Shown here: piece after piece, positions 7,823-36,370 of the stretch
How positions within the stretch are numbered: position 1 is the first letter of the stretch
How the letters are laid out: each line of letters opens with the position of its first letter
NCBI GenBank assembly: GCA_963758525.1
Contig: CAVWVQ010000003.1
Coordinates: 2,720,001-2,784,000 of the forward strand
Direction: 5' to 3'
DNA length: 64,000 bases
Source of the DNA: an uncultured Phycisphaerales bacterium
GTDB lineage: Bacteria; Planctomycetota; Phycisphaerae; Tepidisphaerales; Tepidisphaeraceae
Translations under genes and position numbers: made by a program
Notes under the pieces: generated by a model
What the model was told of the DNA's origin: nothing
Databases searched by the model: none
What the model saw: the letters and a program-made list of their open reading frames with translations, nothing else

Positions 7823-8231
7823 CTATCCCGCTACCCACTCAATACTTGACGCCCACCCCAAGTTGGCCAGGAACGCCACGAGCACTTGCTCCGTTTGTGC
7901 GTGGCATCGCTCGATGATCTCGGGGTCGTGCCCCGCAAGCTCCACAACCATCTGCGCCTCCCGCATCGCGCGGTTGACCGCCGCGGTGTCGGCATCAGCG
8001 CCGCCAGGCGTAATCGCCCATAGCCCCTGTTCCTGTCCAAGAGCTTCTTGGCGGCGGACAGATACTGTCCCTCAGCGCCGAAGGATTCGGCGGCCTGGGC
8101 TTTCTGCTCGCTGTTGAGCGATTTCCGGACGCCGAACCAGGTGAACGAGCCGCGTACGGCAGCGAAGGCCGATCGCAGGCGCTGTGACGGTGACGTCGGG
8201 CTCGGGCGCCGGCTGATCGATCCATGGTCAT
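7823..8231 (-). pseudogene. Remnant of the DUF3150-like gene (paralog of 19770-20759) fused to the 3' end of another gene (possibly DUF4230-like)
   Basis: QRLRSAFAAVRGSFTWFGVRKSLNSEQKAQAAESFGAE..SAAKKLLD matches the N-terminus of 19770-20759. It then switches abruptly to EQGLWAITPGG...VNRAMREAQ...LANLGWASSIEW. Confidence 0.7.
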
Positions 8232-8501
8232 GGGACCTCCTGTGGGCCCGGGAATTGCCCCAGGCGAAAAGTGGGAATAATTGGTGTTTCTGAGATCGAC
8301 GTAACCAAAGGTGAATTCTGCAGTTACATGGGAGCGGGTTTCCAGGAGGCTCAAAGCAGGGGCTGCCTTGGGTCGTCGGAGGGTTACGGAACGCTCCAGC
8401 GGGGCTGGAATTCGCGGCAAACGGCCTTCCGACGGCTGCCTGTGACGGCATCGCGGGCCGATCTGGGGGAAGTCAAAAACCAGTTTTTGAAATGACAGGG
8501 A

Positions 8502-9100
8502 TCAATGGGCCGCGGATCGTGCGACGCGCCGAATGCTCTGCCGGCTCACCGTTGTCGCGTGTGTAGATCCCCGGCCGGCTGGCATGTAGGCACCTGCCAC
8601 TGGCCCAGGCGCGCAAACGTTCCACCGATTCGGCGGCGCTGACGGAGATGGGAACGACATTGCGCAGCTTCCTTGAGCGGAATGTTCAGGATCGCCGCCA
8701 GGCGGCAGCACGATTGAATCTCCGCGCCCGTCCATCCCTCGTCGGCGGGGCGCGTACTGGGGTGATCGCAGGCAAGCCATACTTACAGAGATAGATCGGC
8801 CAGATCGCTTCCCGCTCGGGGGCGGAGGGCAGGTCGATGTAGAAGATGCCGTCGAATCTCTCTGCCCGTCCAAACTCCGGCGGGAGCTTGGAGATGTCAT
8901 TGGCGGTGGCGGTGGCAACCACGAACACATCACTCATGTGATCCGCCAGCCAGGTCGATATCCCACACCGCCAGCGACCATTTGTTCTGCCGGGCGAGTT
9001 GGGCGATGTCGCGCAGGACATCGTGATGTTCCGCCGACTGGATCCAGATTCCGGTGAATGCGGCGGCAATGTATTCGGTGAAACGTTGAGTGAGCGTCAT
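8502..9100 (-). pseudogene. Internally deleted copy of the AAA ATPase at 21010-22506
   Basis: [33 protein letters not shown] joins directly to [40 protein letters not shown]; the Walker A/B region is missing. Confidence 0.9.
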
Positions 9101-10269: not shown

Positions 10270-11130
10270 TTACTCGGGCTTGCCGAGCCGCTGTAATGCG
10301 TAGGCAGCGTGCTCGCTCTGGCGGTCATGCCGCACGTACTCACGCCAGTGCAGGCGGGCTTCAACTTCCTCCCCCAGATCGTCGAGCGCATCTGCGAGGT
10401 TGTAGCGTGCCCTCCAGTTGTCGGGAGCGGCCTCCAACGCACGGCGGAATGCACCGGCTGCTTCCTGCAGGCTTCCCAGCTCTCCCAGGCACAGGCCGAG
10501 ATTATTCCATGCGTCGCTGTGAGAGCTGTCTATTTCGACAACTTGCAGATACCGCTCGACTGCCTGCTGCCGTTCTCCCAAGCTCCGCAAGACGTTGGCC
10601 AGCGCGAAGCAGACGTCGGCGTCGGGGCCGCCTTCCAGTAGTGCCTGGCGGTAAGATCCAGCCGCCTCCGCCAGCTGCCCCTGTTCCTCTTGCTGAAGGC
10701 CGTGCGTGAACCATTCCCCAGCGTTTCGCGGACCGCCGATGATCCGCAGCGGATGCTGCGGCCTGTCCTGATCGAAGTCAAAATGATATTGCCCATCGGC
10801 TTCGGTGAGATCTCCCTGCTCTAACCGCACGAGCAGTGTCCCGCTCCGCTCCAGGATGGCGAGTTGTTCAAGCGGATATTCCGTGTCCGACTGGCGCTCG
10901 CGTAAAACCTTGAGACTCTTGCGCACACGACCGAGAGTGACGCCGCTGGCCAGCAGATCGCAGAGGCATTTAGCCGCGGAGACCTGACGAAAATCAAATT
11001 GCGCGATATTACCCTGCGAGATGGTGGGGCGAATCAGGCCTGCTCGCACCCAAGCCCGCAGCCGCTCGGCGGGGACGTTCAAAATCTCGCCGAGCGAGTC
11101 GAGGGTATACGTCTTTACGCTCGTGTCCAT
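10270..11130 (-). CDS. MerR-like HTH plus TPR repeat protein
   Basis: LGEILNVPAERLRAWVRAGLIRP HTH; TPR motifs such as DAWNNLGLCL and ARYNLADAL. Confidence 0.9.
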   Translation of the reverse strand: MDTSVKTYTLDSLGEILNVPAERLRAWVRAGLIRPTISQGNIAQFDFRQVSAAKCLCDLLASGVTLGRVRKSLKVLRERQSDTEYPLEQLAILERSGTLLVRLEQGDLTEADGQYHFDFDQDRPQHPLRIIGGPRNAGEWFTHGLQQEEQGQLAEAAGSYRQALLEGGPDADVCFALANVLRSLGERQQAVERYLQVVEIDSSHSDAWNNLGLCLGELGSLQEAAGAFRRALEAAPDNWRARYNLADALDDLGEEVEARLHWREYVRHDRQSEHAAYALQRLGKPE

Positions 11131-11163
11131 CGCGGCTGGAGTATACGCTGAACAGCTCGCATT

Positions 11164-12029
11164 TTACGACGATTTGCGCCGCTTCGACGCCGCCGCTGAC
11201 GCGGCCGGTTTGCTGGCGCTGCCAGCTTGGCCGGCTTCTTCTTTTGAGGCTTGGCAGTTTCCAGGCTCTTCTTCAGCGCTTCCATCAAGTCGGGAATTTG
11301 CTGCAGATCATCCACCGGCGGCGTGACGATTTGCTTCCCGGCAACCTTGCTCTCGACGAGCTGCAAGAGCCGCTCATCGTACGTGTCCTTGTATTGCTTG
11401 AAGTCAAAATCTTCGTCAACCATCGACTCGACGAGCATGTGAGCCATCTTCAGCTCTTGCGCTCCTGTTTCTGCCTTTGGGACTTCGGCGGCGAACTCGC
11501 TGGCCGGCCGCACCGCAGACGCGAACGACAGGAATGTCATTGCCAGCAGGCCGCCGGTCGGCCGCAGCAGCACCACCTGATCTTTGGCCCCGAAAACGAC
11601 CTGTGCGAAGGCGTAGTTCTCCTGCTCCAGCATCGTGCGCAGAAGCAGCGCGTACGGCTTGAAACCGACCGGGCCATCAGGGACAAGATACATCGTGCGA
11701 CCGCTGTACTGCGCCGGATCGATCGCGTTCGGCTTGATGAACGCTACGATATTGACGGCCTTGTCCTTCTCCGACCGCAGTTTCTCCAGCTCGTTCGGAT
11801 CGATGATGACATACTGGTCCGGCGAGTATTGATAGCCGCTGACGATCTGATCGCCCTTGACCTCACCATGCTCGGGGCAGGTTTTGCGGTATTTGATCCG
11901 CATTCCGCAGTCTTTGTGGAGTTGATTCAACGCCACACCACTCTCGCTGGCCGTGGCGGAGTACGCCTTCACGGGGAGTGTGACCAGACCGAAGCGGATG
12001 AAGCCCTTCCAGACAGATCGCGCAGCCAT
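11164..12029 (-). CDS. ku: Ku protein (NHEJ end-binding); 1-nt indel near the C-terminus
   Basis: RSVWKGFIRFGLVTLPVKAY, LNQLHKDCG..IKYRKTC, IVSGYQY, YKDTY, IPDLMEALKKSL. Restoring one C gives a basic tail ending KRRKSS*. Confidence 0.95.
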
Positions 12030-12317
12030 ATAGCCTCTGAGGCCCGCGGCCTCGGGTGATCCGTCCATGGAGTAGGATTCGAAAATGTCGGAGAAGCGGC
12101 GTGAGTCGCCCGACAGATATCAGTGTATCGCCTGGCCGGCGGGCGGGAACAGAAGAAATTCGAGCGCGGCTCCGCGGACCAAGGGCACCCGCTCGGACGC
12201 TGGCCGAATGATGTTCTTATCGGACGAGGATCGGGGGCATGCGCGTTCGCATTCGCCTTTTGCACCGCCTCCCCAGGACGCGCGTCATGGGTTCTCGCGA
12301 TGGTGAGGCGATCTATT

Positions 12318-12539
12318 TCATTGTGCTTCAAACCTACCGACTCCCGACGTGCAAGAGTCGTAGTGGGCCGTGACGGACAGATTCTGCGCCGCATGCTCCG
12401 CCTGGAGCGCCGCTTGAAAGAGCGGATCGTTCCCAGTGTATCCGAGTTGCTCAAGTCGCATGCGGAGCCGTCGAAAGTAGCGAAGATGCCGGTTCACCTG
12501 CTCTCGTAACTCAGTGGCTTGGGCGGGGGTGATTCGCAC
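12318..12539 (-). CDS. Small hypothetical protein
   Basis: 73 aa ORF with a recognisable paralog remnant at about 1460-1600. Confidence 0.6.
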   Translation of the reverse strand: MRITPAQATELREQVNRHLRYFRRLRMRLEQLGYTGNDPLFQAALQAEHAAQNLSVTAHYDSCTSGVGRFEAQ

Positions 12540-12725
12540 GCCAGCAGCCTACATTACGGGCGCAATTTCGTCGCCACTGTTTGAACGATTTCAGATCAGC
12601 GCAATCGAGGAGGGCCGGCATTGACGGCCGGGCGGAGCTGTCGGTGTCAAACCACTGGGCAGCGTCGCGCGGGACATTCGCGATCAGCATCTTTGCGGTA
12701 TGTCGTTCCGGATGAATCAACAAGC

Positions 12726-13088
12726 TCACGTTTCAATACTGAGCGTCTTGACTCCGATCCATGCATGATCGCCCGCTCTGCCAAGGACATAAACCTCAAC
12801 TTCAGAGCCGCGTGTGACACGAAAGACACCAAGGCCATTGAAATTGGACTCCAAAACCTTCCGTAGCGACTGGAATCGGCTCGCCTGATCGTCATCCACC
12901 AATTCACCAAAAAAGGCTTCAATGGTCTGTTCACTGATCGCGTTCGAGTTTGCGTGAGCTGCTACGGCATCCCGCGATGATCCATCGGTCGCGGGCCAGT
13001 TGAAGACTTCAAATGGCTCATCACTCTCCGACGGGTAGAGCAATCCCGCGACAGCCAGCCGAAGTTGTGACAACACAGCGTTCATCAA
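12726..13088 (-). CDS. nuiA: Nuclease A inhibitor family protein
   Basis: GLLYPSESDEPFEVF...FF..LV...VYVLG...W.GVKT..IET; overlaps the stop of the nucA-like gene. Confidence 0.9.
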   Translation of the reverse strand: MMNAVLSQLRLAVAGLLYPSESDEPFEVFNWPATDGSSRDAVAAHANSNAISEQTIEAFFGELVDDDQASRFQSLRKVLESNFNGLGVFRVTRGSEVEVYVLGRAGDHAWIGVKTLSIET

Positions 13089-14071
13089 TCCGGTCCAGCA
13101 TGCAGCAACGGGCGGGGCGGGGTGATTGTTTCTGAATCGACCTTTGCGTCCAAGGCCATCCGGACGTCATCGGGTAGAGCCGTAAAGAAATGCAGTCCGG
13201 TCTTTGCTTCGATCGAGGCTGGCGCGCAGCGGAAACCCGCCCATTCCTCGCCAACGCGGTCATTGTCGTTTGGAACATCCACGGCAATCACCCGGTCCGT
13301 CGCATCAACGTTTGCCAAATCATCACGTCCAGTATCGCGTGTGACGACGATGACCTTCCAAATTTGCGCGGGCACGATCACGCGACCCTCGGCGATCGAA
13401 TCTGCCGGACCCTTGCTGCCGACGCCGCCACGGCCTGCCGGTCCGCTGCTGATGTACAGTCGATCGCCGGCCCGCGCCAGCTCGCGGCAATAGTTCTCCA
13501 ACTGAGCCCAGCACTTGCGATTGTTGTTTGGTGCCTGGGGGACGATGTTGGTCATGACGAAAGTGCCATAACTGCTCGAAAGAGTACTTGCGCGGTCGGA
13601 GTGATCGCACATATGCCCGCGATCGAATCCGCTGCCGGTGTAGTCTCGCGACGCGACGTGATCGAAGCTGGCGGGCAGGGTATCGTCAGAATCAAAAGTC
13701 CGCTTACGCGGCGCGCTTCCCAGGTCTGCTGCGCAGAGCCGCCAGGAAACCCATCGGGGCTCGCCGGCGGAGTCGTCATATGCGAGCGCAAAATACGGCT
13801 TGACCATCAGGTAGTTGTCGCGGTTAACGGGATCCTCTGTCGCGCCGCTGGGATTGCCGAGCAGCATCTGCACAGACGATGGGCCAGACGGCGGAGGCGG
13901 CGGAAGTGCGGCGTTGCTCGGAAAGGCTTGCGTTGCCGGAGAACCATCAGGCGCGTTCGGTCCCCGTGCCAAATCGTCCGGGGGGCGCGACAGCCACAAG
14001 CCCAGGACGATTAGCGCGACGCAGACAAGCAGGATCGAGATGACTAACAGCAATTGGCGGGGCTTTGGCAC
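13085..14071 (-). CDS. nucA: DNA/RNA non-specific endonuclease (NucA type) with N-terminal membrane anchor
   Basis: LLGNPSGA, NYLM.K, PRWVSW, DYTGSGFDRGHM, TNIVPQ...N..CWAQLENYCR; likely GTG start at 14071. Confidence 0.92.
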   Translation of the reverse strand: MPKPRQLLLVISILLVCVALIVLGLWLSRPPDDLARGPNAPDGSPATQAFPSNAALPPPPPSGPSSVQMLLGNPSGATEDPVNRDNYLMVKPYFALAYDDSAGEPRWVSWRLCAADLGSAPRKRTFDSDDTLPASFDHVASRDYTGSGFDRGHMCDHSDRASTLSSSYGTFVMTNIVPQAPNNNRKCWAQLENYCRELARAGDRLYISSGPAGRGGVGSKGPADSIAEGRVIVPAQIWKVIVVTRDTGRDDLANVDATDRVIAVDVPNDNDRVGEEWAGFRCAPASIEAKTGLHFFTALPDDVRMALDAKVDSETITPPRPLLHAGPD

Positions 14072-14103
14072 GGCCCCCAGCTTATCGATGCGCGCTTCGG
14101 CCG

Positions 14104-14661
14104 CTACTTCCAGCCGACCGCGAGTGCCGACGCAGTGGAAGCGCTGCACTCGGGGCAGGTACCGCTGACGTTGCCGGTCAAGGAGTACCCGCACTGGATA
14201 CAACGGTTCTCCTCCCGACGCTTGAGTCTTTGCTTCCGCCGGCCCAGCCAAGCGGGAGTTTGCCAGAGGAGACAAGCGGCGAACAGGATGCCGCTCATGT
14301 CGCGCACTTGCGAATACAAAGCCACCTGCCGGGACCGGTCGGCAGCGAGGTAGCTTTTTAGAAGGCTTCTCTGCCTAGCTTGCAGCCGTCTCACTTCCGC
14401 ATTCAGCGCGTGACCCTGTTGGACGAATACCGGATCATCGGTCTCGGCGACATGAGAATAAGGATCGGAAGAACGATAAGCAGCCGCCGCAAGCAACGCG
14501 CGATAGAGCTGCTGTTGGTTATTCCGAAGCAGCGGTACGAACTTTTCCTGCGCAAGCCGCGTTGTCCGCGCAGTCGAAGCTTTCAGCAAGGCGCAGGTGA
14601 TCCACACCAAGAGGGCCAGAAGAAGCACCAGATTCAGCGGCGACTTGAGGAGACGTCTCAC
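14104..14661 (-). CDS. Membrane protein with C-terminal zinc ribbon
   Basis: Two TM segments; CIQCGYSLTGNVSGTCPEC. Confidence 0.7.
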   Translation of the reverse strand: MRRLLKSPLNLVLLLALLVWITCALLKASTARTTRLAQEKFVPLLRNNQQQLYRALLAAAAYRSSDPYSHVAETDDPVFVQQGHALNAEVRRLQARQRSLLKSYLAADRSRQVALYSQVRDMSGILFAACLLWQTPAWLGRRKQRLKRREENRCIQCGYSLTGNVSGTCPECSASTASALAVGWK

Positions 14662-15415: not shown

Positions 15416-15500
15416 AAAGAGACGCCCATGTCGCGCTGGCGGTTCACGATTCTGTCAGCGGCTCCCAGGCCGTGATCAATGTCCCCGATGACGAGCGCCG

Positions 15501-15607
15501 TTTGTTCTGGCGGGCGAGTCGGGCGATATTGCAATGGGCATCGTGATGTTCCGAGGACTGTATCCAGTAATGCTGCGGCGTTGGGGACCCGGTTGCATGA
15601 GAGTCAT
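15501..15607 (-). pseudogene. Third, heavily decayed 5' fragment of the AAA ATPase gene
   Basis: Minus strand reads ATGACTCTC...TGGATACAGTCCTCGGAACATCACGATGCC...CTCGCCCGCCAGAACAA (WIQSSEHHDA...LARQNK), matching the 5' end of the gene at 22506. Confidence 0.8.
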
Positions 15608-21009: not shown

Positions 21010-22506
21010 TCAGTTGTTGGATGGTCGGGACACACGCCGGTTGCTCGGTGCAGCGGGTTCAGCGGTTGCACGGACATAAATCCCCGGTCGGCTGGCATCG
21101 AGACACCGACCCGCCGCCCACGCCCGCAACCTGTCCACGGATTCTGCCGCAGTGACGGCAACGGGCACGACATTTTTGGCGGCATCGATGAGCGGCATAT
21201 CCAGCAGCGCCGCCAGACGGCAGCACGACTGGATTTCCGCGCCGGTCCAGTCCCGGTCATCGGGGCGCTGAGCCCTGGGGTCGTGGCCGTAGCGGGCCAG
21301 ATGGATTGGCCAGATCTTGTCTTTCTCTGCACGGCCCGGCAGGTCAATGAAGAACACCGCGTCAAACCTCTCGGCGCGGGTGAACTCGGGCGGCAGCCGG
21401 GTGATGTCGTTCGCCGTCATGATGAAGAAGATGTCGCTTTCGTGATCGGACATGAACGAGAGGAGCGACCCGAAGAGCCGAGAGGTGACGCCGCTGTCAC
21501 CGCTGGATGAGGCTCCGGCCAGCGCCTTGTCCGCTTCATCCAGAAACACATTGCAAGGTGCCATGGCTTTGGCGAGGGAGAAGACCTGCCTCGTCCGCTC
21601 TTCGGTTTGACCCACCAGAGATCCCATCAGTGCGCCGGTGTTCAACACGAGCGTGGGCCGGCCGGTTTCATTGCCCAGGGCCTTGCAGAATAAACTCTTT
21701 CCGGCCCCCGGAAGTGATACCAGCATCAGCCCGTGGGCCACGGCCCGACCGGAGCCACTGGCGCGAATGATCCGCTTGCTGAAATCCTTCAGCGGCTCAA
21801 GTCCGCCGAGATCGGCGAACGTCTCACCGCCGCAGTAGAGCGAAACCAGCCCGGACTTCTTGAGCATGCTGCCCTTGAGTTCCCAGATGCTCTGCGGTTC
21901 CAGCCTGCGATGGCGGACGAGCGAGAGACTGAAGGCCGATTCCGCCTCGACACGGGTCAAGCCAGCCGCCGCGTCCAGGAGCCGTTGCAGATCCTCGCCC
22001 TTGGGCATCTCGCCTTTCTCCGTGGCGATGCCGCTGGCGATGGTCTGGAGCTGTTCTCGGTCGGGAAGCTCATGCTCGATCACCACGAAGCATTTCTCCA
22101 GCTCGATGGGGATTTGCACGATGGGGGAGAGAATCACGATGAACGTGCGGTTGTTTTTCCCGGCTTGGATTTGGTGGGCCAGGGCTTGGACGATCGCGTT
22201 GGATTCGCTGGACTGGAGAAAACGATGGAAGTTGGGAAGCACAAGCAACGCCGAGCTGTCGGTTTTGGCCAGGGCGTTGAGCGCCCGGATGGCGGCGACT
22301 GGATCGGTGGCGTTGGTCGCGGCAGCCTGGCCGTTATTACCCGCAACGGACAGACCTCTGTCCACGTCCCAGGTCGCCAGTGCCCACTTGTTCTGGCGGG
22401 CGAGCTGGGCGATCTCGCGCAGGGCATCGTGATGTTCCGCCGACTTTATCCAGATGCCGGTGAATGCGGCGGCGATGTATTCGGTGAGACGGGTAGCGAG
22501 GGTCAT
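21010..22506 (-). CDS. Ycf46-like AAA+ ATPase
   Basis: Degenerate N-terminal AAA half, then LGGL, Walker A PGAGKS, MGSLVGQTE, Walker B FLDEADK, TAND, PPEFTRAERFD. Confidence 0.92.
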   Translation of the reverse strand: MTLATRLTEYIAAAFTGIWIKSAEHHDALREIAQLARQNKWALATWDVDRGLSVAGNNGQAAATNATDPVAAIRALNALAKTDSSALLVLPNFHRFLQSSESNAIVQALAHQIQAGKNNRTFIVILSPIVQIPIELEKCFVVIEHELPDREQLQTIASGIATEKGEMPKGEDLQRLLDAAAGLTRVEAESAFSLSLVRHRRLEPQSIWELKGSMLKKSGLVSLYCGGETFADLGGLEPLKDFSKRIIRASGSGRAVAHGLMLVSLPGAGKSLFCKALGNETGRPTLVLNTGALMGSLVGQTEERTRQVFSLAKAMAPCNVFLDEADKALAGASSSGDSGVTSRLFGSLLSFMSDHESDIFFIMTANDITRLPPEFTRAERFDAVFFIDLPGRAEKDKIWPIHLARYGHDPRAQRPDDRDWTGAEIQSCCRLAALLDMPLIDAAKNVVPVAVTAAESVDRLRAWAAGRCLDASRPGIYVRATAEPAAPSNRRVSRPSNN

Positions 22507-22889
22507 GAAATTCTCCTGTGGGTATGAGTGATTCGAACGTGAGGAAACGACGGGCGATTCAGCGGTGGTTGTCACGCCGAAATGGGCGGGTACGGTAATG
22601 GCTCAAATGCTGACTGGAAGTACGGAGATCAAAAAAACTGTCGCCGAAACTTGAAGCTGAAATCGCCGAAATCATCAAACGCGAATGTCCCGGGGAAAAC
22701 ACCCGGCCGAACCAAGCCAGAAACAGACGCAGAGCCCGCTGCGCGAGAAGGTAGGGCAGTAGAGGGCGGAAAGTAGGCATCAGAAACTGGCGCGTGACTC
22801 AATGAGAATATTCAATCCCGGAGCGGCCACTCACCCCCGATAACGGGCGAACCCGTCGAGTGTGCGCCTGATGACGTATTGTCCTTCCC

Positions 22890-24845
22890 TCAACGGGCAC
22901 GGCGCGGAGACAGCGTGATGCTGCGGCGCGAACGGCGTTGCTCCCCAAGGTGCTTGCCGTAATACGTCAGAATATCGCCGCGTGTAATGATTCCCGCGAG
23001 TTTGGCACGATCGCGCTGAATCACGGGCAGCCGGCCGACGTGGTGGTGGATCATATGATCGATCGCGTCACGCAGCGTCGAATCATCGTAGACCACCACC
23101 GGCGGACGCTTCAGAAGTTGCCGGAGCATCAGACCTTCCGCGACGCGCGGATCCGTGACATCACGGCGGGTGACGACGCCCACCAGATCACCGAAATCGT
23201 TGACGATCGGAAAACCATGATGCTTCGCGTCTGGCGCGCCGCTGTCGAGCCACGTCCGGGTAACCGCAACCGTCTGATCGGCGGGGAGCACAACCGTCTC
23301 TCCCGAGCAGGCGTCGCGGACCAGCACCTGCGCCAGAACATCAGCTCGGTATTCAACCGGAACGCGCACGCCCTGGCGATGCATCTTCTCGCTCATGATC
23401 GATGTGCGTGAAATCAACGTCGCCACGGTGTAGGAAGCTGCGCAGCCACATCGCGCCGGCAGGATTGCCCAGGGCTGCAGCGTCGTTTCGAACGCGAAGA
23501 CGACGCAGGTAAGCATCGCCCGCGAAGCACCGGCAAAGATCGCGACCATCCCCACCAGCGAGGCCACTCGGATGTCCAACGCGATGGCCGGATCGACACG
23601 ATGCGCGATCAGCGCGAGCACCGCGCCGAGCGATCCGCCGATGGTGAAGACCGGGGCGAGCGTGCCGCCAGCGGTACCGCTTCCCAGGGAGACCGTCCAC
23701 GTCAGGAATTTGAAAAGCAGGAGCAGCGAGGCTGCCCGCAGGGCAAGATCGCCGCTAAGCAGATGGTCGATGTTGAAGTATCCCGAACCGAGCGTGTAAG
23801 GGGCGACATAGCCAATCACTCCGACCACGAGTGCGCCGACTGCGGGATGCCACATCCAGTGACACGGGATGTGCTCGAAGAGATGCTCCACGAGATACAC
23901 CGCCTCGGTCATGATGACGGCGGCAACCCCCATGATCCCACCGAGAATGGTCCAGATGGTGATCTCCAGATAGCTCGCCGGCACAAACGGCCCACCGCCG
24001 ATCTTGAAGAACGGCTCGAAGCCTTCAAAGTGATAATGAACCACGGACGCGACGGCGCATGCCATTGCAACCGGGATGATCGAGCGCGGACTGAACTCGA
24101 AGAGAAGCAGTTCGATGGCAAGCAACACCGCCGCGACGGGACATCCAAATGCCGCCGCGATTCCCGCCGCCGCCCCGGCGGCGAGCAGTATCTTGCGCTC
24201 GGACGGCGTGGTGTGGAGTAACTGTCCGACCAACGATCCGAGCGCCCCGCCGGTTGCGATGATCGGCCCTTCCGCGCCGAATGGCCCGCCGGTGCCGATG
24301 GAAACGGCCGCCGACAGTGGCTTCAGGAACGTCATCTTCGGCGGAACCCGGCTCTGGTTGAGCAGCACCTGTTCCATCGCCTCGGGGATCCCGTGCCCCG
24401 CCACCTGCCGCGAGCCGTAGCGGGCGAGCAGCCCGATCAATATCGCTCCCGCAACCGGAATAAGAACGATCCACAATCCCAAATGATTCGCCCCCATCGT
24501 CTGCGGCGGCGTCCCATGCTGAATCGAAAGCCGGCCATAGAACGAGAGATTGGTAATCAGCCAGATGGTCCGTATCAAAACCTGAGACAGCAATCCCGCC
24601 AGCAATCCGATCAGGATGCACAGGCAGGAGATAAACAGAACCCTCGCATCGAGCGGATTGGATTGCACCGGCAGCTTCGCGTCTGCCAGCGTCGGCCCCA
24701 TCGATAGGGAGATCGGCAATCCGTCCGTGGTCGAAGCCGCCCGAACCTTCTGTTCGGCCGCGTCACTCTTATTTTCCGCGCTCAACGCTTCCGCCTGGTC
24801 AGGGGTGAGGGAAGCAACGTATAGACGAGCACGGAATGTTGTCAA
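22890..24845 (-). CDS. CLC (EriC) chloride channel/antiporter with tandem CBS domains
   Basis: GHGIPE, GAEGP, GGTLAP signatures; C-terminal CBS pair (FPIV..LVGVVT, LPVI..LAGIIT). Confidence 0.95.
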   Translation of the reverse strand: MTTFRARLYVASLTPDQAEALSAENKSDAAEQKVRAASTTDGLPISLSMGPTLADAKLPVQSNPLDARVLFISCLCILIGLLAGLLSQVLIRTIWLITNLSFYGRLSIQHGTPPQTMGANHLGLWIVLIPVAGAILIGLLARYGSRQVAGHGIPEAMEQVLLNQSRVPPKMTFLKPLSAAVSIGTGGPFGAEGPIIATGGALGSLVGQLLHTTPSERKILLAAGAAAGIAAAFGCPVAAVLLAIELLLFEFSPRSIIPVAMACAVASVVHYHFEGFEPFFKIGGGPFVPASYLEITIWTILGGIMGVAAVIMTEAVYLVEHLFEHIPCHWMWHPAVGALVVGVIGYVAPYTLGSGYFNIDHLLSGDLALRAASLLLLFKFLTWTVSLGSGTAGGTLAPVFTIGGSLGAVLALIAHRVDPAIALDIRVASLVGMVAIFAGASRAMLTCVVFAFETTLQPWAILPARCGCAASYTVATLISRTSIMSEKMHRQGVRVPVEYRADVLAQVLVRDACSGETVVLPADQTVAVTRTWLDSGAPDAKHHGFPIVNDFGDLVGVVTRRDVTDPRVAEGLMLRQLLKRPPVVVYDDSTLRDAIDHMIHHHVGRLPVIQRDRAKLAGIITRGDILTYYGKHLGEQRRSRRSITLSPRRAR

Positions 24846-25192: not shown

Positions 25193-25877
25193 GTGCGCCT
25201 GAAAGCGTAAGAGATCTGAGAGGTGCAAGTCCTCTCCGGGCAAACGTTCTCCGGCCCGTAACCGAGAGTAACTGCGTGGCCGCGAGGCCAGGTGGAGAGC
25301 AACAGGAGGTGAATGACCAGTCCGCAACGCAAGTGAACTCGATTCGGCCGGATGTGGTGGCGAGCCTGCTACGGTGGGCGACCGCATCGTTCAAGGCGCG
25401 GTCCGTCACGCGATCGAACCGATCTTCGAGAAGGAGTTTGCCCAGCACAGCTACGGCTTTCGCCCCGGCAGGGGATGCAAAGACGGGTTGCGGCGGGTGG
25501 ATGGACTTCTCAAGAGCGGACATCGTTACGTGGTGGACGCGGACCTCAAGAGCTACTTCGACACGATCCCGCACGACCTGCTGATGAAGCAGATCGGCAA
25601 GCGGGTGGCGGATGGCCGGGTGCTGAACCTGATCGAGTCATTCCTTGAAGCCAAAATCATGGAAGGGCTGGAGCAGTGGACGCCGATGGCCGGTTCGCCG
25701 CAGGGCGCGGTGTTGTCGCCATTATTGAGCAATATCTATCTGAACCCGCTGGATCATCTGATGGCGGGCAAAGGATACGAGATGGTTCGATACGCCGACG
25801 ACTTCGTGATCCTCTGCCAGTCGGAGGAAGATGCCCAGCGGGCGCTGGCCGAGGTGCGGCAATGGACGGCGCAAGCC
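25193..25877 (+). mobile_element. Truncated class C (IIC) group II intron
   Basis: Starts GTGCG right after a hairpin. About 175 nt of domain I-like RNA is followed by an RT fragment. No domain V/VI found. Confidence 0.85.
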
Positions 25878-25886
25878 AGACGGTGA
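25369..25886 (+). pseudogene. ltrA: Group II intron reverse transcriptase fragment (RT2-RT5)
   Basis: TVGDRIVQ, SYGFRPGR, VVDADLKSYFDTIPH, GSPQGAVLSPLLSNIYL, RYADDFVIL; both termini missing. Confidence 0.92.
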
Positions 25887-28734: not shown

Positions 28735-28929
28735 TCAGCCGTTGCCCTGACGGATGGCCTGGTCAACGGTCTGGGTTTGATACATCTCGGCCGTGGGTTT
28801 ATCCGACTGCACGATGCCCAGCGCCTGCTCAATGAACTTGCTGGCGGCGCGGCAGGCGGAACCGGTGAAGCCTTTGGTAGTTACCGTGGTTTCGCCGGTC
28901 GGGCTGATGATGACTTCGATGGTTTTCAA
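28735..28929 (-). CDS. DUF2997-like protein
   Basis: MKTIEVIISPTGETTVTTKGFTGSAC..AS.FIEQALG......TAEMY. Confidence 0.85.
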   Translation of the reverse strand: MKTIEVIISPTGETTVTTKGFTGSACRAASKFIEQALGIVQSDKPTAEMYQTQTVDQAIRQGNG

Positions 28930-29297
28930 GCGGCACCTCCGACGACCTGAACGGTCAGTTTGATGCTCCCATCGGACAGAGTTTGTTCAGCGACACGGTG
29001 GCCGACCCGGCGGGCTTCGATGGACGCCTTCTCCGCGGCATACGCCTGAAGCAGCTTGTCGAGCTCCGCCTGCGCGCCCCAGCGGCCGTTGTAGTTGTCG
29101 AACTGGACTTCCCCTGACTTGGTGTCGACCACGACGGGATAATTCCACCCCGGCAGTTTCACGATCAGGCCCGTTGCGTGGCCGGAGAACAGTTTCGCGG
29201 TGCCCGACACGGGCTCGGGCAATTTCAACCTTTGGCAGGCGGCAGCAACGCCGCCTGGATCGGTGAGTTTGGTTTTGATGTTCACGATGTGCGACAT
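28926..29297 (-). CDS. DUF1257 (Ycf35-like) protein
   Basis: MSHIVNIKTKLTD...LLQAYA......A...G.......DGSIKL. Confidence 0.85.
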   Translation of the reverse strand: MSHIVNIKTKLTDPGGVAAACQRLKLPEPVSGTAKLFSGHATGLIVKLPGWNYPVVVDTKSGEVQFDNYNGRWGAQAELDKLLQAYAAEKASIEARRVGHRVAEQTLSDGSIKLTVQVVGGAA

Positions 29298-29755: not shown

Positions 29756-30316
29756 CTAAAGCTTCCGGTCGAGCAGCCGGTATTGCACCGCTTCGGCAAA
29801 ATGGCTTTCCGCGATGCATTCGCTCTGGTCCAGATTGGCGATAGTCCGCGCGATGCGGACGGCGACGGTGAAGGCCCGGGCGGAGAGGCCCAGCTCGTCA
29901 TATGCCTGTTTGCCCAACAACAGGACGCTATCGGAGAGCGTCAGATCCTTATGCTTGGTTCCCCATTTCACCGCCGCATCCACCTGCTTGCCGATATGCG
30001 CCGAGTCCGTGCCGGGGCGCTTGGAAATGAGTTCGCGGTAGGGGACTGGGGGCACTTCGACGTGGATGTCATGCTGCATGTGCTGCCGGAATAACTGTGT
30101 GCGCTCCGGATCTCGCAGATCGTTGGTGATCTCAGCTATCTCAATGTCCCTGATTCCTTTCGCTGCCTGTGCCAGCATTGTCTTGCCATGACCGCTGGGA
30201 CCAATCAGCACGACCGAATGGTTGCCCGCCAGGGCGATGATCAAGGCACGCTTGACCGCTTCCTGGGATCGAACTTCCGCAAAATCAATGCGCGGAGAAT
30301 CTCTGTCTTCCGACAT
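29756..30316 (-). CDS. Miniature ComM/YifB-like (Mg-chelatase-related) protein
   Basis: DFAEVRSQEAVKRALIIALAGNHSVVLIGPSGHGKTMLA plus C-terminal LGLSARA...RIARTIANL...HFAEAVQYR; only 186 aa. Confidence 0.85.
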   Translation of the reverse strand: MSEDRDSPRIDFAEVRSQEAVKRALIIALAGNHSVVLIGPSGHGKTMLAQAAKGIRDIEIAEITNDLRDPERTQLFRQHMQHDIHVEVPPVPYRELISKRPGTDSAHIGKQVDAAVKWGTKHKDLTLSDSVLLLGKQAYDELGLSARAFTVAVRIARTIANLDQSECIAESHFAEAVQYRLLDRKL

Positions 30317-30379
30317 GGTGGTTTCCTTTGCCGCTGACGCGGCGAACGAGAAGGTTGAAAAGCCGCCCGCTCACGGCCG

Positions 30380-30775
30380 TCATGGTTCTTCCGGCCAGCG
30401 AGCGTCGGGCATCAGCCCGGCGTGTTGCAGACGCGATATGGACGCAAAAAGCTCCGTTGGTGGGTCGCCCGTCGACAGACCGCCAGAGATCAGGAGAACA
30501 ACACCCGGTCCCCCCGCAACACTGGCGGCGTCACGGCGCTTATGTCCCAGTGCCGCCTCAATGGCGGCAATGTCGCTGAGCAAGAGTTGCCGGTACTCGT
30601 CGAGCTCAGTGTATTCACCGCCCAATTCCTTGTTGATCGCCTCGAAATGCTTCTGGTCGAGTTCTTCAATCGCGCGTCTGGCCTGAGCGATCGCTGAGCA
30701 GGCCCACTGTTGATCTATTCCGAATTCGTGAATGGCTTTGAACCCGATTGACCGGACGAACATGTCTGCGCCCAC
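30380..30775 (-). CDS. Hypothetical protein, tandem paralog A
   Basis: AAGGAG RBS; aligns end to end with 30873-31262. Confidence 0.8.
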   Translation of the reverse strand: MGADMFVRSIGFKAIHEFGIDQQWACSAIAQARRAIEELDQKHFEAINKELGGEYTELDEYRQLLLSDIAAIEAALGHKRRDAASVAGGPGVVLLISGGLSTGDPPTELFASISRLQHAGLMPDARWPEEP

Positions 30776-30872
30776 GTCAGGCTCCTTTCAATTTTGGTTG
30801 TCGCCGGTGGTTTCCGCGCAGCACTTCAGTTGTGATGGAGGTTCCAACGCCGCGCGGTTACGGCTCTCACGG

Positions 30873-31262
30873 TTAAGTGGGCCAGCGAGCGTCGGGCATC
30901 ACCTCGGCGTGATGCAGGCGGGAGATCGACTCAAACAGTTCGCTCGGCGCGTCGCCCCACGACAGACCGCCCGAAACCAGAAGAACGACGCCGGATCCCC
31001 CCGCAATGAAAGTGGCGTCACGGCGGTCATCGGCCAGCCCCTCCTCAACCGTGGCGACATCGCTGAGCAGAAGTTGCTTATACTGCGTGAGATCAGTGTA
31101 TTCGCCGCACATCTCTTCGTTGATCGCCTCGAAACGTGCCTGTTCGAGAGCGGCAATTGCGCGCTTGGCCTGAGCAATCGCTGAGCGGGCTTGCCTCCGA
31201 TCCAGCTTGAACCCGCGGTTGGCTTTGAACCCGATTGACTGCAGCAGTGTGCCTGCACCCAT
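30873..31262 (-). CDS. Hypothetical protein, tandem paralog B
   Basis: AAGGAG RBS; shares SIGFKA, SAIAQA, LLLSD, SGGLS.GD.P.ELF and MPDARWP with 30380-30775. Confidence 0.8.
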   Translation of the reverse strand: MGAGTLLQSIGFKANRGFKLDRRQARSAIAQAKRAIAALEQARFEAINEEMCGEYTDLTQYKQLLLSDVATVEEGLADDRRDATFIAGGSGVVLLVSGGLSWGDAPSELFESISRLHHAEVMPDARWPT

Positions 31263-32601: not shown

Positions 32602-33036
32602 ATGACTCACAGCACATTTGACCCCACCGGCGACCCTGAACGCAGCGGCTCGACTATGCCGCCGCTGGCAACGCCGGGAATCGAAATCTCAGAAGAAAAC
32701 GAAGGCAGGCTGCTGATCGTCAAGCTGATCGGGAAGCTGCATAAGGACGACTACCGTCACTTCCTGCCCGTGGTGCAAAAGGCCATCGGGCGCTATGGCA
32801 AGGTTCGCATGCTGGTGCAGATGCTCGACTTCCACGGCTGGGACGCCGGTGCATTGTGGGAAGACATCAAATTCGACGTGAAGCACTTTAATGACATCGA
32901 GCGACTGGCGATGGTGGGCGAGCGGACTTGGGAAAAATGGATGGTGATCTGCTGCAAGCCGTTCACCACCGCGAAAATGCGGTATTTCCCGGTCGAAGAG
33001 CTAGCCGAAGCGCGGACGTGGATCATGGCAGCGTAA
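32602..33036 (+). CDS. STAS/SEC14 (SpoIIAA-like) domain protein
   Basis: GKLHKDDY...GKVRML...FHGW...ALWEDIKF...IERLAMVG...W. Confidence 0.9.
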   Translation: MTHSTFDPTGDPERSGSTMPPLATPGIEISEENEGRLLIVKLIGKLHKDDYRHFLPVVQKAIGRYGKVRMLVQMLDFHGWDAGALWEDIKFDVKHFNDIERLAMVGERTWEKWMVICCKPFTTAKMRYFPVEELAEARTWIMAA

Positions 33037-33057: not shown

Positions 33058-33747
33058 TTATGCCGCGGAAAGCTCCGCCGATAGCAGGTTGATAGTCACG
33101 TCGCGATCGACGGGCAAGCCCCGCAGCCACCGGGCAAACTGGCCGACCATCAGGCCCGCACAGATCGATGCCGTGTACAGCGTGCTCTTGGCCGTACACG
33201 ATCCGGCATACGCCTCTTCGGCACCAAACAGCGTAGTGGCGTAGTAGTAATCACCGCCCGGCTGCCCGCTGGCCAGCACCCGGAGCACTTCGGCGGACAT
33301 TCTCCCATCTGCGAAGAAGTGGAGATGCTCTCTGGTCGATTCCCAAATGAGCTTTCGCGTCACAATGGAATCGACGCAGCAGAAGAGCGCCAACCGCACC
33401 CCGTTCTGGCGAATCCATTCCAGCCGACGGGCCGATGAGCGCCGGAAGGGCTCTGCCTGACAGACCAGTGTAATCTCCGGGTAGATGCAGCGGCAGAGCC
33501 GGCCGGTGGCCTCGACCTTGGGCTGGTCCAGATCCTGGGGCCAATACCCCTGGGGAGCCAGATTCTCGACACCAACGGTGTCGTGATCGATCAGATCCAT
33601 CACCGGCACGCCCGTCGCCGCCAGCTGCATCGCCACCTGCCGGCCCACCGCCCCCGCACCGACCACCACGGCATGGACCTTCGCCAGATTGTCAGGCGGG
33701 ATCAACTCCCGCTGGCGGATATCCCGGTCGGGATGACTGGTGCTCAT
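33058..33747 (-). CDS. ThiF-family E1-like adenylyltransferase
   Basis: [30 protein letters not shown]...R, DGRM; candidate catalytic Cys in GSCTAKS. Confidence 0.92.
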
Positions 33748-34561
33748 CGTTCCTCCCGGTCGGTGATCTCGAAGTAGCTGGCATAGCCGTCGTCCATCGC
33801 CAGCTCATCGTGCCGGGCATAAATGTCATCTTCCTGGAACAGGTGGCTGGTGCGGGATTGACGATGGGAGGGCCGCAGATCGACCTCGTCCTCGAAGTAG
33901 CTGGAGGGCGAGGCGTCATGGATGTTGGTGCCGTATTCATCCATCCACTTCTCGGTCACGGCGCTCAATTCAGCCCCATTGTCAATGAGGATCTGGGGCC
34001 AGGTTTCCCAGTCGACCCGCACGGGCAGTGAGACCGATCCGCCGGGACCGACGTTGAACGTCAGCCGTGCGAATGTCTGGTGGGTCCGGCTGACGATGAG
34101 CATGATCGCCCAGTCACATTTCCCGAAGACGCGCTGAAAGGTCTCCTCATCCACGGAACTGGGCAGGGGGCTCTCACCGGGGTGTGTGTGCGCCAGATCC
34201 TGGCAAACCGGGCGGGGGTGAGGCCGCGATCGATGCAGTCATCGAAGTAATCCGCCACTGCCGTGTCATCGAACGCCACGGTGACCGGCGTGCAGGTCTG
34301 CTTCACTGTCTGGAAATTTTCGACGTAGAGCGGCTGCTTCTCAGCGCTAATGGCGAAGCCGCCGACTTCCGTGTCGCCGGCGTGGAGGAAGAATAGGAAC
34401 TTGAGCCAGGCCAGCGGCGAGAAGGTCACTGCCGCGGGCTCCTCACGCCGCCTGTGCATCGGAAACGCCAGCGGTGCCGGCTCCGGCTTCTCCATCAGTC
34501 GTGCCGCCCGCAGGCCCGACTGGTTGGGGGTCGGAAATATCTCGGAAATGGGAATGTGCAT
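33744..34561 (-). CDS. JAB/MPN metallopeptidase (frameshift at about 34193)
   Basis: TEVGGF, then with one G restored [20 protein letters not shown], giving the E...HxH...SxxD JAMM motif. Confidence 0.85.
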
Positions 34562-35549
34562 GGGAGGTCTCCGTTTGGGGTTGCGGTTGTTCTGGAGCGG
34601 GATCGTGAACGGGATCGTCCTCGGTCTCTTCCGCTTCTTCTTCGTTGGCTTCCTCTCTCTTCTTGTCGTCGAGTTCTTTGCACTTGGGGCACAGCCGTTC
34701 GCCGTCGTCATTGCTGCCCGCGCAGCCGAGGCAGATGGATGCATCACATCGATCGCACGATCGAATGCAGTTGTCGCAGTACTCTTGATCGCAGTGGTTG
34801 CAGCAGTACGCTCCGTCGCTGGATGTCGACCTGCCGCAATCCGAGCACGGTTGGCCGTCCCAATCGCCCAGTGCCACGTAGGGGGAGGCGCGGTTGTAGG
34901 TGTGGAGAACGCGGTTCACGAGCTGAAACGCATCGCCGATCCGGCCTTCGGCCAGAGCGTAAGAGATCGGACCCCTGGCATCGCCGGCGCAGAGGCGTTC
35001 GCCCCGGACGTGTGGGTGTGTGCAGGTGTTATCGCTGGAAGCAGGATTGGGATCTTTGGCGAAAATTGTGAATGCCGATGCGTCTCTCCGCTGAGAGAAA
35101 ACATCAAAATGCAGTTGGATGGCAAAGCGGCCCAGGCAGACGTCTTCCAGCGTTATTTCATCCGTCGTAACATCGATGCGGCCCTCTTTGGGAAGGATCT
35201 CTACCTCGCTGAATTCGTCTGTCAGGTACCGGATTTCAGCGAGGATGTCGGCGACGCCGGGAACGTCGGTGGCAGTGGGATCGACTGTTCCTGGAGGGCG
35301 GGTGGTTCTGGAGGCGGAATTTATCTGAGTGATATGCCATTGAAGCCGGATAGACAGGAGCTCGGCGCTGTGCGTCCATCCGTGTGACATAGCCGTGCGG
35401 TACAGCCGCCAGCACCGTTCCATCGTCCGCTGCTGGTCCAGCAGCAAAGAGAGCGAAGTCATCCAATCAGGCGATTCGCCACGGTTGGCGCGGGTGAGAA
35501 TGCGGTGCAGTCGAAGGGCGGCCCAGAGGGTGAGGGATTTCTTCTTCAT
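34443..35549 (-). CDS. Prokaryotic E2-like protein with C-terminal multi-CxxC zinc domain and acidic tail
   Basis: THPHVRGERLCAG resembles the UBC HPN...IC motif; six CxxC pairs follow; lies between the Ubl and JAB genes. Confidence 0.72.
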   Translation of the reverse strand: MKKKSLTLWAALRLHRILTRANRGESPDWMTSLSLLLDQQRTMERCWRLYRTAMSHGWTHSAELLSIRLQWHITQINSASRTTRPPGTVDPTATDVPGVADILAEIRYLTDEFSEVEILPKEGRIDVTTDEITLEDVCLGRFAIQLHFDVFSQRRDASAFTIFAKDPNPASSDNTCTHPHVRGERLCAGDARGPISYALAEGRIGDAFQLVNRVLHTYNRASPYVALGDWDGQPCSDCGRSTSSDGAYCCNHCDQEYCDNCIRSCDRCDASICLGCAGSNDDGERLCPKCKELDDKKREEANEEEAEETEDDPVHDPAPEQPQPQTETSHAHSHFRDISDPQPVGPAGGTTDGEAGAGTAGVSDAQAA

Positions 35550-35575
35550 GGCGAACAGTCCTCCGGGAATGACAG

Positions 35576-35613
35576 AGCCCGCCTGAACGGAAAGATTCTC
35601 GTTCAGGCGGGCT
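35576..35613. terminator. 14-bp perfect stem-loop between the Ubl and E2-like genes
   Basis: AGCCCGCCTGAACG, 10 nt loop, CGTTCAGGCGGGCT; no clear U-tract. Confidence 0.6.
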
Positions 35614-35642
35614 GGAGAACGCATCTACGCACAGCCGGTGAC

Positions 35643-35861
35643 TCAGGCACCTTCGATCTTGAGCGGCGTCATGCTGATGCGGGAACCGGCCACCAGAACC
35701 TGATCGGCCGCGGCGGGAAGGCGATCGACCCGGATCAGATAGTCGGTGGGATTGGCGTCGGGCATCTTCTGCTGGAACAGTTTCTTGACGGTGGTGCCTT
35801 CCTCCACCTCGATGTGGTCGGCGAACCCGCCGCCTTCGTTGTTGATGTACAAAATCTTCAT
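35643..35861 (-). CDS. Ubiquitin-like (beta-grasp) protein ending KIEGA
   Basis: 72 aa with beta-grasp pattern (EVEEGTTV..L, YLIRV, L..G.RI); near-terminal Gly; AAGGAG RBS; first gene of the E2-JAB-E1 run. Confidence 0.85.
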   Translation of the reverse strand: MKILYINNEGGGFADHIEVEEGTTVKKLFQQKMPDANPTDYLIRVDRLPAAADQVLVAGSRISMTPLKIEGA

Positions 35862-35929: not shown

Positions 35930-36370
35930 TCAGCGATAACTTTCAGCGCACCGCGGGTCGAACTGACCATTTCCGCGGTGACGATCGTGTTGAGGCGAAT
36001 CGTACGCGCCAAATGGGCCATACTCTTCCTCCTCCGATCCATCATCGACGGGGCCACGCACCGGCGCTGGGCCACCCCGCCGGCTATCGCGATCGACCGG
36101 TGGCGTGGGGAACAAATGCCGCGGTCTGCTGATGGGGGATTTGAAAAGGACGCCCAGGCGATGGATGGCAAACGCCAACATCGTTATGCCGGCAATGGCG
36201 ATCGCCACAGCCGGCGGAACAAAGAGCGCGCCCTGGAGCACAGGCGAGCTTTGAACCAGCCGATGAACGACCGCTGCGCCGGGTTGGCCATTGAGTTCCT
36301 GTAACACGGCGTAGGCGGTCAGCACCATGCCGACCAAAGCGAAAAGCATGACACGAAAGAGCGAAGTCAT
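35930..36370 (-). CDS. Two-TM hypothetical protein
   Basis: GGAGG RBS; two hydrophobic segments. Confidence 0.65.
   Translation of the reverse strand: MTSLFRVMLFALVGMVLTAYAVLQELNGQPGAAVVHRLVQSSPVLQGALFVPPAVAIAIAGITMLAFAIHRLGVLFKSPISRPRHLFPTPPVDRDSRRGGPAPVRGPVDDGSEEEEYGPFGAYDSPQHDRHRGNGQFDPRCAESYR

Follow-up and report, generated by a model that had tools for sequence, protein, structure and literature searches.

The window analysed here, 64,000 nucleotides (nt) of contig CAVWVQ010000003.1 from an uncultured Phycisphaerales bacterium (positions 2,720,001 to 2,784,000), carries a candidate ubiquitin-like conjugation cassette on what appears to be a mobile element. Four consecutive minus-strand genes encode a ubiquitin-like protein (Ubl), an E2-like protein, a JAB/JAMM peptidase and a ThiF/E1-like enzyme, and all four open reading frames (ORFs) lie where an earlier note, made from the sequence of this stretch alone, had placed them (Table 1). 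The Ubl has 72 amino acids (aa) and the C-terminus IEGA. The HPHV..LC motif of the E2 occupies residues 178-187 and is followed by CxxC pairs at residues 235, 250, 258, 265, 273 and 287 and by an acidic tail with 16 Asp or Glu within residues 291-330. The JAB gene starts at 34561, inside the 3' end of the E2 gene, and the resulting overlap of 119 nt is kept in homologues; an earlier natural stop of the E2 was rejected for this reason. As the same note had reconstructed, the HTHP..PSSVD site of the JAB is recovered across a frame break, being encoded in a second frame past a position near 34192. The E1 has 229 aa, matches Pfam ThiF (E 2e-19) and overlaps the JAB stop with its start by 4 nt. Scans for promoters and terminators gave signal at chance level. 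The cassette is not a chance arrangement, because the order Ubl-E2-JAB-E1 recurs at ~40 other loci.

The proteins of the cassette

In the model of the whole E2 (predicted local distance difference test, pLDDT, 84), a helical hairpin (residues 6-82) precedes an alpha/beta domain, which is followed by a Cys-rich part and then by a disordered tail. Since VIA structure searches with the whole protein returned only coiled-coil matches to residues 25-93, the middle domain was folded separately (pLDDT 88). Its best VIA row was UBE2S (Z 7.6, root-mean-square deviation 3.3, 121 of 138 residues aligned), the top eight rows were all UBC enzymes, and the rows listed by Foldseek were solely UBC, UFC1 or RWD proteins (UbcA1 with probability 0.97 and E 0.012). 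Cys187 is kept in 199 of 200 homologues, and H178, H180 and C187 are invariant across 50 aligned rows; HPN is the UBC motif, and one phage E2 (locus L071) has this canonical spelling. The E2 assignment made earlier for the 34443-35549 protein is supported by a predicted UBC fold with a conserved Cys, and neither of the two findings named in the note as refuting it, a missing UBC fold or a variable Cys, was obtained. No model in Pfam, NCBIfam, PADLOC or PHROGs matched the E2, and PDB sequence searches with the E2 and Ubl profiles returned nothing significant.

The Cys-rich part varies in length across the family. Ten CxxC pairs were counted in 93 of the 170 complete arrays, six in 21 and eight in 20, so that 134 arrays hold 6, 8 or 10 pairs, with six in the present cassette and ten in the usual form; the remainder comprises 28 arrays with 7, 9 or 11 pairs, under a loose pattern in which His was counted too, and 8 with other counts. 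The most frequent spacings are 11-(4-3)n-4-x, and the step of 15 residues per two added pairs is compatible with zinc sites interlocked in a chain, predicted to number three here and five in most homologues, a reading that takes FYVE/RING spacing as its assumed guide. The Cys region gave weak Siva matches in 19 of 50 homologues and a Prok-RING_1 match in one of 50 (E 0.04), and weak LIM rows appeared for the E2 in Foldseek. The chain does not appear to be a canonical, fixed RING, its length varying from 6 to 10 or more pairs. We infer that it may act as a built-in E3-like adaptor.

The Ubl of the window on its own matches nothing, and 26 of 28 homologues match the ThiS family (best E 6e-6), in agreement with the beta-grasp fold read from the sequence in the earlier note. 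Gly-Ala is present in 41 of 41 Ubls and is followed by unrelated tails, which extend 1-43 residues after the Gly, only 3 of the 41 terminating at the Ala. On two phage-like contigs (L072 and L073) the Ubls occur in tandem, each with a K-V-[EQ]-G-A end, within a protein of ~220 aa (L072:9560-10225, L073:9551-10216) that holds two family Ubls after a further N-terminal unit. The architecture of this protein resembles that of a polyubiquitin precursor. Cleavage by JAB after the Ubl Gly is described for Bil (PMC10557695) and for Bub (PMC11601596). In the present family, Ubl conservation that stops at one bond resembles that of a cleaved precursor; the invariant Gly-Ala, the free tails and the tandem phage Ubls with the same junction together support a predicted JAB cut after Gly71, and with it the earlier proposal that removal of the last Ala would expose the Gly.

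In the JAB itself, the Glu and the HxH-x7-S-x2-D residues are retained, both across the break and in intact homologues. The best solved match of the JAB profile was the Rpn11-like N11 protein (positions 39-157, a weak match with E 0.034), against which the Glu and HxH..S..D residues are aligned; the Prok-JAB matches of the gene remained below the cut-off.

A single ThiF domain of ~220-230 aa makes up the E1 in every row, and zinc CxxC pairs are absent from it. The spare Cys noticed earlier, Cys184, proved invariant, in 37 of 37 rows from cellular loci and in 20 of 20 rows that include five phage copies. The E1 scores far under the ThiF/MoeB cut-offs, and against TIGR03736 (PRTRC ThiF) it reaches 23.4 bits, the cut-off being 144.75. 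The structure prediction of the E1-Ubl complex that the earlier note had called for was run and gave a score of 0.80 versus 0.00 for the best control, with contact agreement between runs of at least 97% and partner pLDDT of at least 91; the mark applied is reached by 116 of 157 solved pairs and 2 of 215 mismatched pairs. Ubl residues 65-72 contact the GxGxxG, CVD and 176-188 regions in the model, so that the tail lies in the nucleotide pocket, near the Cys184 loop. Because MoeB-MoaD-like complexes have already been solved and the prediction may reproduce them, the score speaks for likeness rather than binding. In a quick version of a tree, the E1 groups with that of the Tepidisphaeraceae locus L052, inside a set of 14 rows including 9 viral ones; long branches make any donor direction unsafe.

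Table 1. Features of the cassette and of the surrounding element (positions in the window)
Feature	Position	Strand	Basis
Ubl, single ThiS/MoaD-type beta-grasp, pro-form ending Gly71-Ala72	35643..35861	-	ThiS in homologues; Gly-Ala 41/41
E2-like protein, 368 aa: helical hairpin, UBC domain, CxxC chain, acidic tail	34443..35549	-	Sequence, profile, model
E2 N-terminal three-helix/hairpin region, residues 6-82	35304..35534	-	Model; only generic coiled-coil matches
UBC/E2 domain, residues 95-232, HPHV..LC, Cys187	34854..35267	-	VIA, Foldseek, Cys conservation
Six CxxC pairs, spacing 11-4-3-4-10; three chained zinc sites predicted	34680..34847	-	Zinc binding predicted from the spacing
JAB/JAMM (MPN+) peptidase gene, one-base frameshift near 34192 in assembly	33744..34561	-	Motif and homologues
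Single-domain ThiF/E1-like adenylase, Cys184 invariant, no zinc CxxC pairs	33058..33747	-	Pfam, alignment, E1-Ubl model
Classic-clade AAA ATPase, weak CDC48/PAN/FtsH matches, often co-travels with cassette	21010..22575	-	17/32 loci
Two conserved element genes behind AAA ATPase: 343 aa (DUF3150-like, lead only) and 91 aa	19498..20801	-	20 and 16/32 loci
DUF1257-like and DUF2997 pair, same element module	28735..29297	-	12/32 loci each
PD-(D/E)XK exonuclease, common to Tepidisphaeraceae locus L053	40543..41478	-	Homology
WGR and ATP-dependent ligase-like gene, common to Tepidisphaeraceae locus L052	31273..32457	-	Homology
Gene directly upstream of Ubl, common to L052 and L053, no family match	35930..36370	-	Homology

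Family spread and element context

The E2 profile matched 17 of 401 genomes of the phylum and, separately, 15 GTDB loci. Of 61 close relatives, 6 gave a match, with 2 positive among the 36 genomes of the same family and none among the 2 of the same genus. Up to five matches occur in one genome and four or five in some, and the distribution of the cassette appears patchy and mobile; Planctomicrobium sp. SH527 is a cultured carrier with several copies. A single-protein scan of the genome contigs found nothing, and a closer alignment gave matches. The order Ubl-E2-JAB-E1 holds in nearly all loci with enough DNA visible, in a comparison that includes kin and several copies per genome, so that its loci are not independent. 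At the level of clusters (50% identity), a profile of the UBC region retrieved 787 at E < 1e-30 and 2,632 at 0.001. The closest named homologues come from Tepidisphaeraceae, and a lead (score 0.88) is provided by an unnamed ESM Atlas cluster, whose 2,546 members are mostly planctomycete.

Viral contigs with the family were found via the Ubl (seven) and via the JAB (one more). All four genes are present on six phage-like IMG/VR contigs (L069-L073 and L095), of which L072 and L073 are close relatives; L067 is an element resembling the cellular ones, and L068 terminates just past the Ubl. The neighbours on the six contigs are DNA polymerase, Sak4, exonuclease, helicase, SbcCD/Rad50-Mre11 or terminase genes. 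On three of these contigs the region upstream of the cassette, with its SbcC/Rad50 and Mre11-like genes, holds a second E1 (L072:2979-9557, L073:2711-9546, L095:609-7434), accompanied on L072 and L073 by a distant E2-like gene and on L095 by a second small Ubl ending KVKGN; to judge from these genes, two parallel conjugation kits may reside in one phage.

Neighbouring genes were counted in 32 loci of at least 8 kb. A gene of ~70 aa recurred in 26 of them, the DUF3150-like gene in 20, the AAA ATPase in 17, the 91 aa gene in 16, and DUF1257 and DUF2997 in 12 each, along with tyrosine or serine recombinases. The ~70 aa gene lies upstream of the Ubl (L032-L066), was not found in the present genome, and may be a fifth member of the cassette. 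For a homologue of the 343 aa protein, the ESM Atlas cluster has DUF3150 in 18% of its members and is 70% viral. At cellular loci the cassette is constant beside DUF1257, DUF2997, AAA and recombinase genes, and the flanking cargo varies. In the window, the module genes lie 4-14 kb downstream of the cassette, ordered as in the same-family locus L116, and the backbone shares its nuclease and ligase with L053 and L052. The position in an element backbone suggested by the earlier note is supported by these data and strengthened by the phage copies. The suggested link to an AAA ATPase stands in part: the ATPase at 21010-22575 is linked to the cassette in just over half of the counted loci and is not obligate, whereas the short YifB/ChlI-like ATPase at 29756-30316, the nearest to the cassette, was rejected as a partner, since no homologue of it occurs in the 32 related loci.

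No att-like repeats or integrase marking the element ends were found, and the nearest tRNA genes are > 100 kb away. Broken second and third copies of the AAA/DUF3150-like module lie at 7831-9100 and 15498-15567 (83-90% alike at the AAA 5' end) and are nested or repeated element insertions, with genes for Ku, a NuiA-like nuclease inhibitor and a non-specific endonuclease between the decayed copies (11115-14275). A group II intron-like reverse-transcriptase remnant is found within the element at 25374-25886. Two tandem paralogous genes (30352-31138, a 300 nt repeat, 74% identical) occur also in L052 and have no family match. A CLC-CBS channel gene (22890-24845) and an opposite-strand SpoIIAA-like gene (32602-33036) interrupt the backbone and look like later insertions. 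Elsewhere in the same assembly, a lone truncated E2 (C3:4759755-4760246) and, 55 kb off, a DUF1257-DUF2997-DUF3150-like module without cassette (C3:4814272-4818713) form a second decayed element.

The frame break in the JAB is exclusive to this copy, the gene being in one frame in 39 of 39 others with both halves in view. It falls in a short G run, where a ~90% identical contig, from a relative and not this strain, has one extra base at 34192. Comparison of the assembly with 105 orthologues of two same-class genomes revealed 9 frame breaks at 8 sites over 36,845 aligned residues, corresponding to ~0.06 expected breaks per JAB-sized gene; at ~8 sites per 105 orthologous genes, split genes elsewhere in the assembly are likewise to be read cautiously. 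Over the N-part, the identity of the halves to intact homologues is 70-90%, and all catalytic residues are retained. We regard the break as probably an error of assembly or sequencing. The alternative is that this copy is dead, i.e. that the frameshift is real, the Ubl can no longer be processed and the cassette decays together with the element carrying it, which would be compatible with any function of the family. Such an end is suggested by the decay nearby (the broken module copies, the reverse-transcriptase remnant, the lone E2 and the second partial module), by the lack of an identical intact JAB among 95 matches, and by the E2 being broken at two related loci (L050 and L053); set against the single frame of all other copies, the error rate of the assembly, the G run and the complete catalytic residues, it seems the less likely reading. 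A search of sequencing runs gave two runs with a small share and listed no RNA run, and because the contigs compared belong to relatives they cannot decide on the break.

Proposed function and alternatives

Taking sequence comparison and models together, we propose that the Ubl-E2-JAB-E1 cassette of planctomycete elements and uncultured phages performs an E3-free tagging of proteins with Ubl that benefits the invading DNA, a reading for which we see about even prospects. Protein conjugation by the cassette family is, taken by itself, quite likely and, if it is granted, service to the invader is moderately favoured over host defence. The preference for an invader function over Bil-like defence or a non-protein acceptor follows from the fixed element core and from the position in phage replication regions. 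In the proposed sequence of events, JAB would cut after Gly71, the tail removed here being the Ala alone. The E1, for which fold and conservation are observed and Ubl binding is modelled, would adenylate the new Ubl C-terminus and load the Ubl on Cys184, from where it would move to Cys187 of the E2, given the predicted fold and the motif of the latter. The E2 itself would select the target, likely via its helical hairpin and chained zinc arm, and join the Ubl to a lysine, which is the weakest step of the scheme. Speculatively, JAB would also reverse the mark, and proteins that carry the tag may be remodelled by the AAA ATPase often linked to the cassette. Likely targets would be host proteins restricting the element, or the invader's own recombination or replication proteins.

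Several points weigh against this proposal. Its conjugate, thioester and target are so far predictions; the nearest families of the Ubl are sulfur carriers, the E1 is as small as ThiF/MoeB, and the four genes are ordered as in the anti-phage Bil systems. The fold scores of the E2 are moderate (Z < 8, no Foldseek E < 0.001), and the structure searches did not display a superposition of Cys187 on the catalytic Cys. Of the six phage-like stretches of 20 kb, a single one showed a terminase large subunit, and no match was found in 50,697 cultured (GenBank) phage records or 72,556 PLSDB plasmids. The AAA module is missing at three of five further long-context Phycisphaerae-class loci (G441, G450, G395) and was also not seen on the 39 kb contig of G428, of the same class. 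In the window no integrase was found, and the element shows decay. Lastly, defence genes occur on the carriers, as detailed below.

We tentatively advance a more far-reaching form of the proposal, in which phages of Planctomycetota, together with relatives of theirs that have integrated, would possess a full and reversible Ubl system. Its components would be a minimal E1, a maturase of the Rpn11 type, an E2 with its expandable zinc chain as built-in E3 and, in some phages, a precursor in the style of polyubiquitin; host proteins or recombination proteins, once tagged, would be fed to a Cdc48-like ATPase. Such a system would form the offensive counterpart to Bil, CBASS Cap2 and Bub.

Alternatively, the same chemistry could serve a Bil-like defence in which the Ubl would mark the proteins of a phage or a rival element entering the cell, and phages would carry the cassette against competitors. 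In favour are the Ubl-E2-DUB-E1 order (DUB, deubiquitinase) and the short tail after the Gly, as in BilABCD, and the defence cargo. A PADLOC scan of neighbouring genes (205 non-core ORFs, 147 after dereplication and a size limit, 130 scanned) gave matches for 13 of the 130, including Gabija, Wadjet and Cas genes; the cargo on some carrier elements comprises GajA, JetB/JetD, Cas5/Cas7, SoFic and a type II methyltransferase. However, these matches are scattered over different systems, none recurring beyond two loci, and the recurrent neighbours are element-backbone genes, not defence genes. The cassette lies amid replication and recombination genes on the phage-like contigs, its single-domain E1 is unlike BilD, and the Ubl and E2 have no PADLOC match at E up to 1 (with the presence of Bil models in PADLOC 2.0 unconfirmed). 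On balance, host defence of this kind appears unlikely. JAB trimming of sulfur carriers is established, and together with the ThiS/MoaD families nearest the Ubl, the ThiF-like size of the E1, a DndA/SspA-like gene a few kb from the cassette at one of 32 loci (L035) and the DNA-metabolism genes around the phage copies it speaks for non-protein tagging, in which the Ubl would be a sulfur or acyl carrier (thiocarboxylate) or be handed on by the E2, with DNA, a nucleotide or another small molecule as the acceptor; this is nonetheless improbable, given that the fixed partner is a UBC-fold protein with a near-invariant Cys, that the E1 falls far below the ThiF/MoeB cut-offs, and that no sulfur-donor or cofactor family recurs in the 32 loci. 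In line with the earlier note, thiamine, molybdopterin and tRNA-thiolation families were likewise absent among the scanned window ORFs (25 besides the cassette and 45 more, from a greedy pick rather than every ORF).

Those bacterial ubiquitination pathways that have been put to the test (CBASS Cap2, Bil, Bub) are described as host defence or presumed to be so. Should the tagging of proteins for the invader prove true, this large family, which has no name and rides in element backbones and in the replication regions of phages, would be a case of the same chemistry in the hands of invaders. With its zinc chain fused to the E2 and variable in length, it also lends itself to the question of how targets were chosen by an E2 before there were separate E3s. 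The cassette is small (~2.8 kb, four soluble proteins); the present copy contributes the predicted short, three-zinc form and a one-residue pro-tail, and L052 supplies an intact homologue.

Comparison with known systems

The literature search retrieved no paper on this family, although the supplementary tables of Burroughs 2011, Ledvina and Chambers could list such operons. The earlier note's description of the system as undescribed holds to that extent; its genes follow the BilABCD order, and systems of this general kind had been predicted in 2006. It was also proposed earlier that such operons act as selfish modification-demodification pairs (PMC1779556, PMC3417536).

BilABCD systems are divided into types I and II, type II corresponding to CEHH, Iyer class 6C (PMC10557695, PMC11601596). 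As far as these accounts describe them, they resemble the cassette in four separate genes ordered Ubl-E2-JAB-E1, the lack of an E3, a Ubl tail after a conserved Gly, and Cys-based E1 and E2 enzymes. They differ in that the Bil E1 is a multidomain IAD-AAD-CYS protein, whereas that of the cassette is a single domain of 229 aa, and apparently in location, Bil being placed in defence islands and the cassette in element backbones and phage-like contigs; the HPH..LC motif, helical hairpin and CxxC chain further set the E2 apart. In the comparison with BilA and BilB, the Ubl and E2 gave no PADLOC, NCBIfam or PDB-sequence match, and BilB was absent among the 50 listed VIA rows. Membership in Bil was rejected on the E1 architecture.

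Iyer class 6d, according to the account cited, likewise encodes Ubl, E2, JAB and E1 in separate genes and is found on mobile DNA, with a predicted function as here; its E2s are described as being without the upstream His, whereas the cassette E2 keeps HPH, and it has an extra gene for an alpha-helical enzyme, in contrast to the four genes of the cassette (PMC1779556). The PRTRC system is described as one of mobile elements (PMC3318190). The location of the cassette is similarly mobile, with recombinases near related loci and a patchy spread, even if the window itself yielded no integrase. Class 6d is presumably the PRTRC cassette of TIGRFAM. Unlike in PRTRC, no ParB was seen with the cassette; the other PRTRC models (protein A-F) were matched by none of five proteins or intact JAB homologues, and Prok-E2 Pfam matched 0 of 50 E2 homologues. 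Both the ThiF model score and the E2 motif fail for PRTRC, and membership was rejected.

Bub types I and II, class 6E (PMC11601596), have a JAB that cleaves after the Ubl Gly, as is predicted for the cassette, and BubB is among the UBC-fold matches (Z 5.5). As described, Bub lacks a catalytic Cys, forming oxyesters, and has fusions and DUF6527 (PMC11601596, PMC11601603); membership was rejected because the cassette E1 and E2 keep their Cys and neither DUF6527 nor fusions are present. A ThiS/ThiF or MoaD/MoeB sulfur relay is disfavoured by the lack of linked sulfur-donor or cofactor enzymes, apart from the one DndA-like gene, in the 32 loci and the scanned window ORFs, and by equivalog scores below cut-off. 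The archaeal and planctomycete Ub-E1-E2-RING-Rpn11 operons, as reported, resemble the cassette in a pro-Ubl with an Rpn11-like peptidase, a small E1 and a UBC E2 with HPx..C (PMC5654768); the cassette differs in having no separate RING gene, a zinc module of variable length fused to the E2, and a ThiS-like Ubl. Two further accounts deal with different Ubl systems, some of them planctomycete and equipped with RING E3s, and as cited do not concern this cassette (PMC11354881, PMC7159879). The best reading of these comparisons is that the cassette would combine the gene order of Bil with different enzymes.

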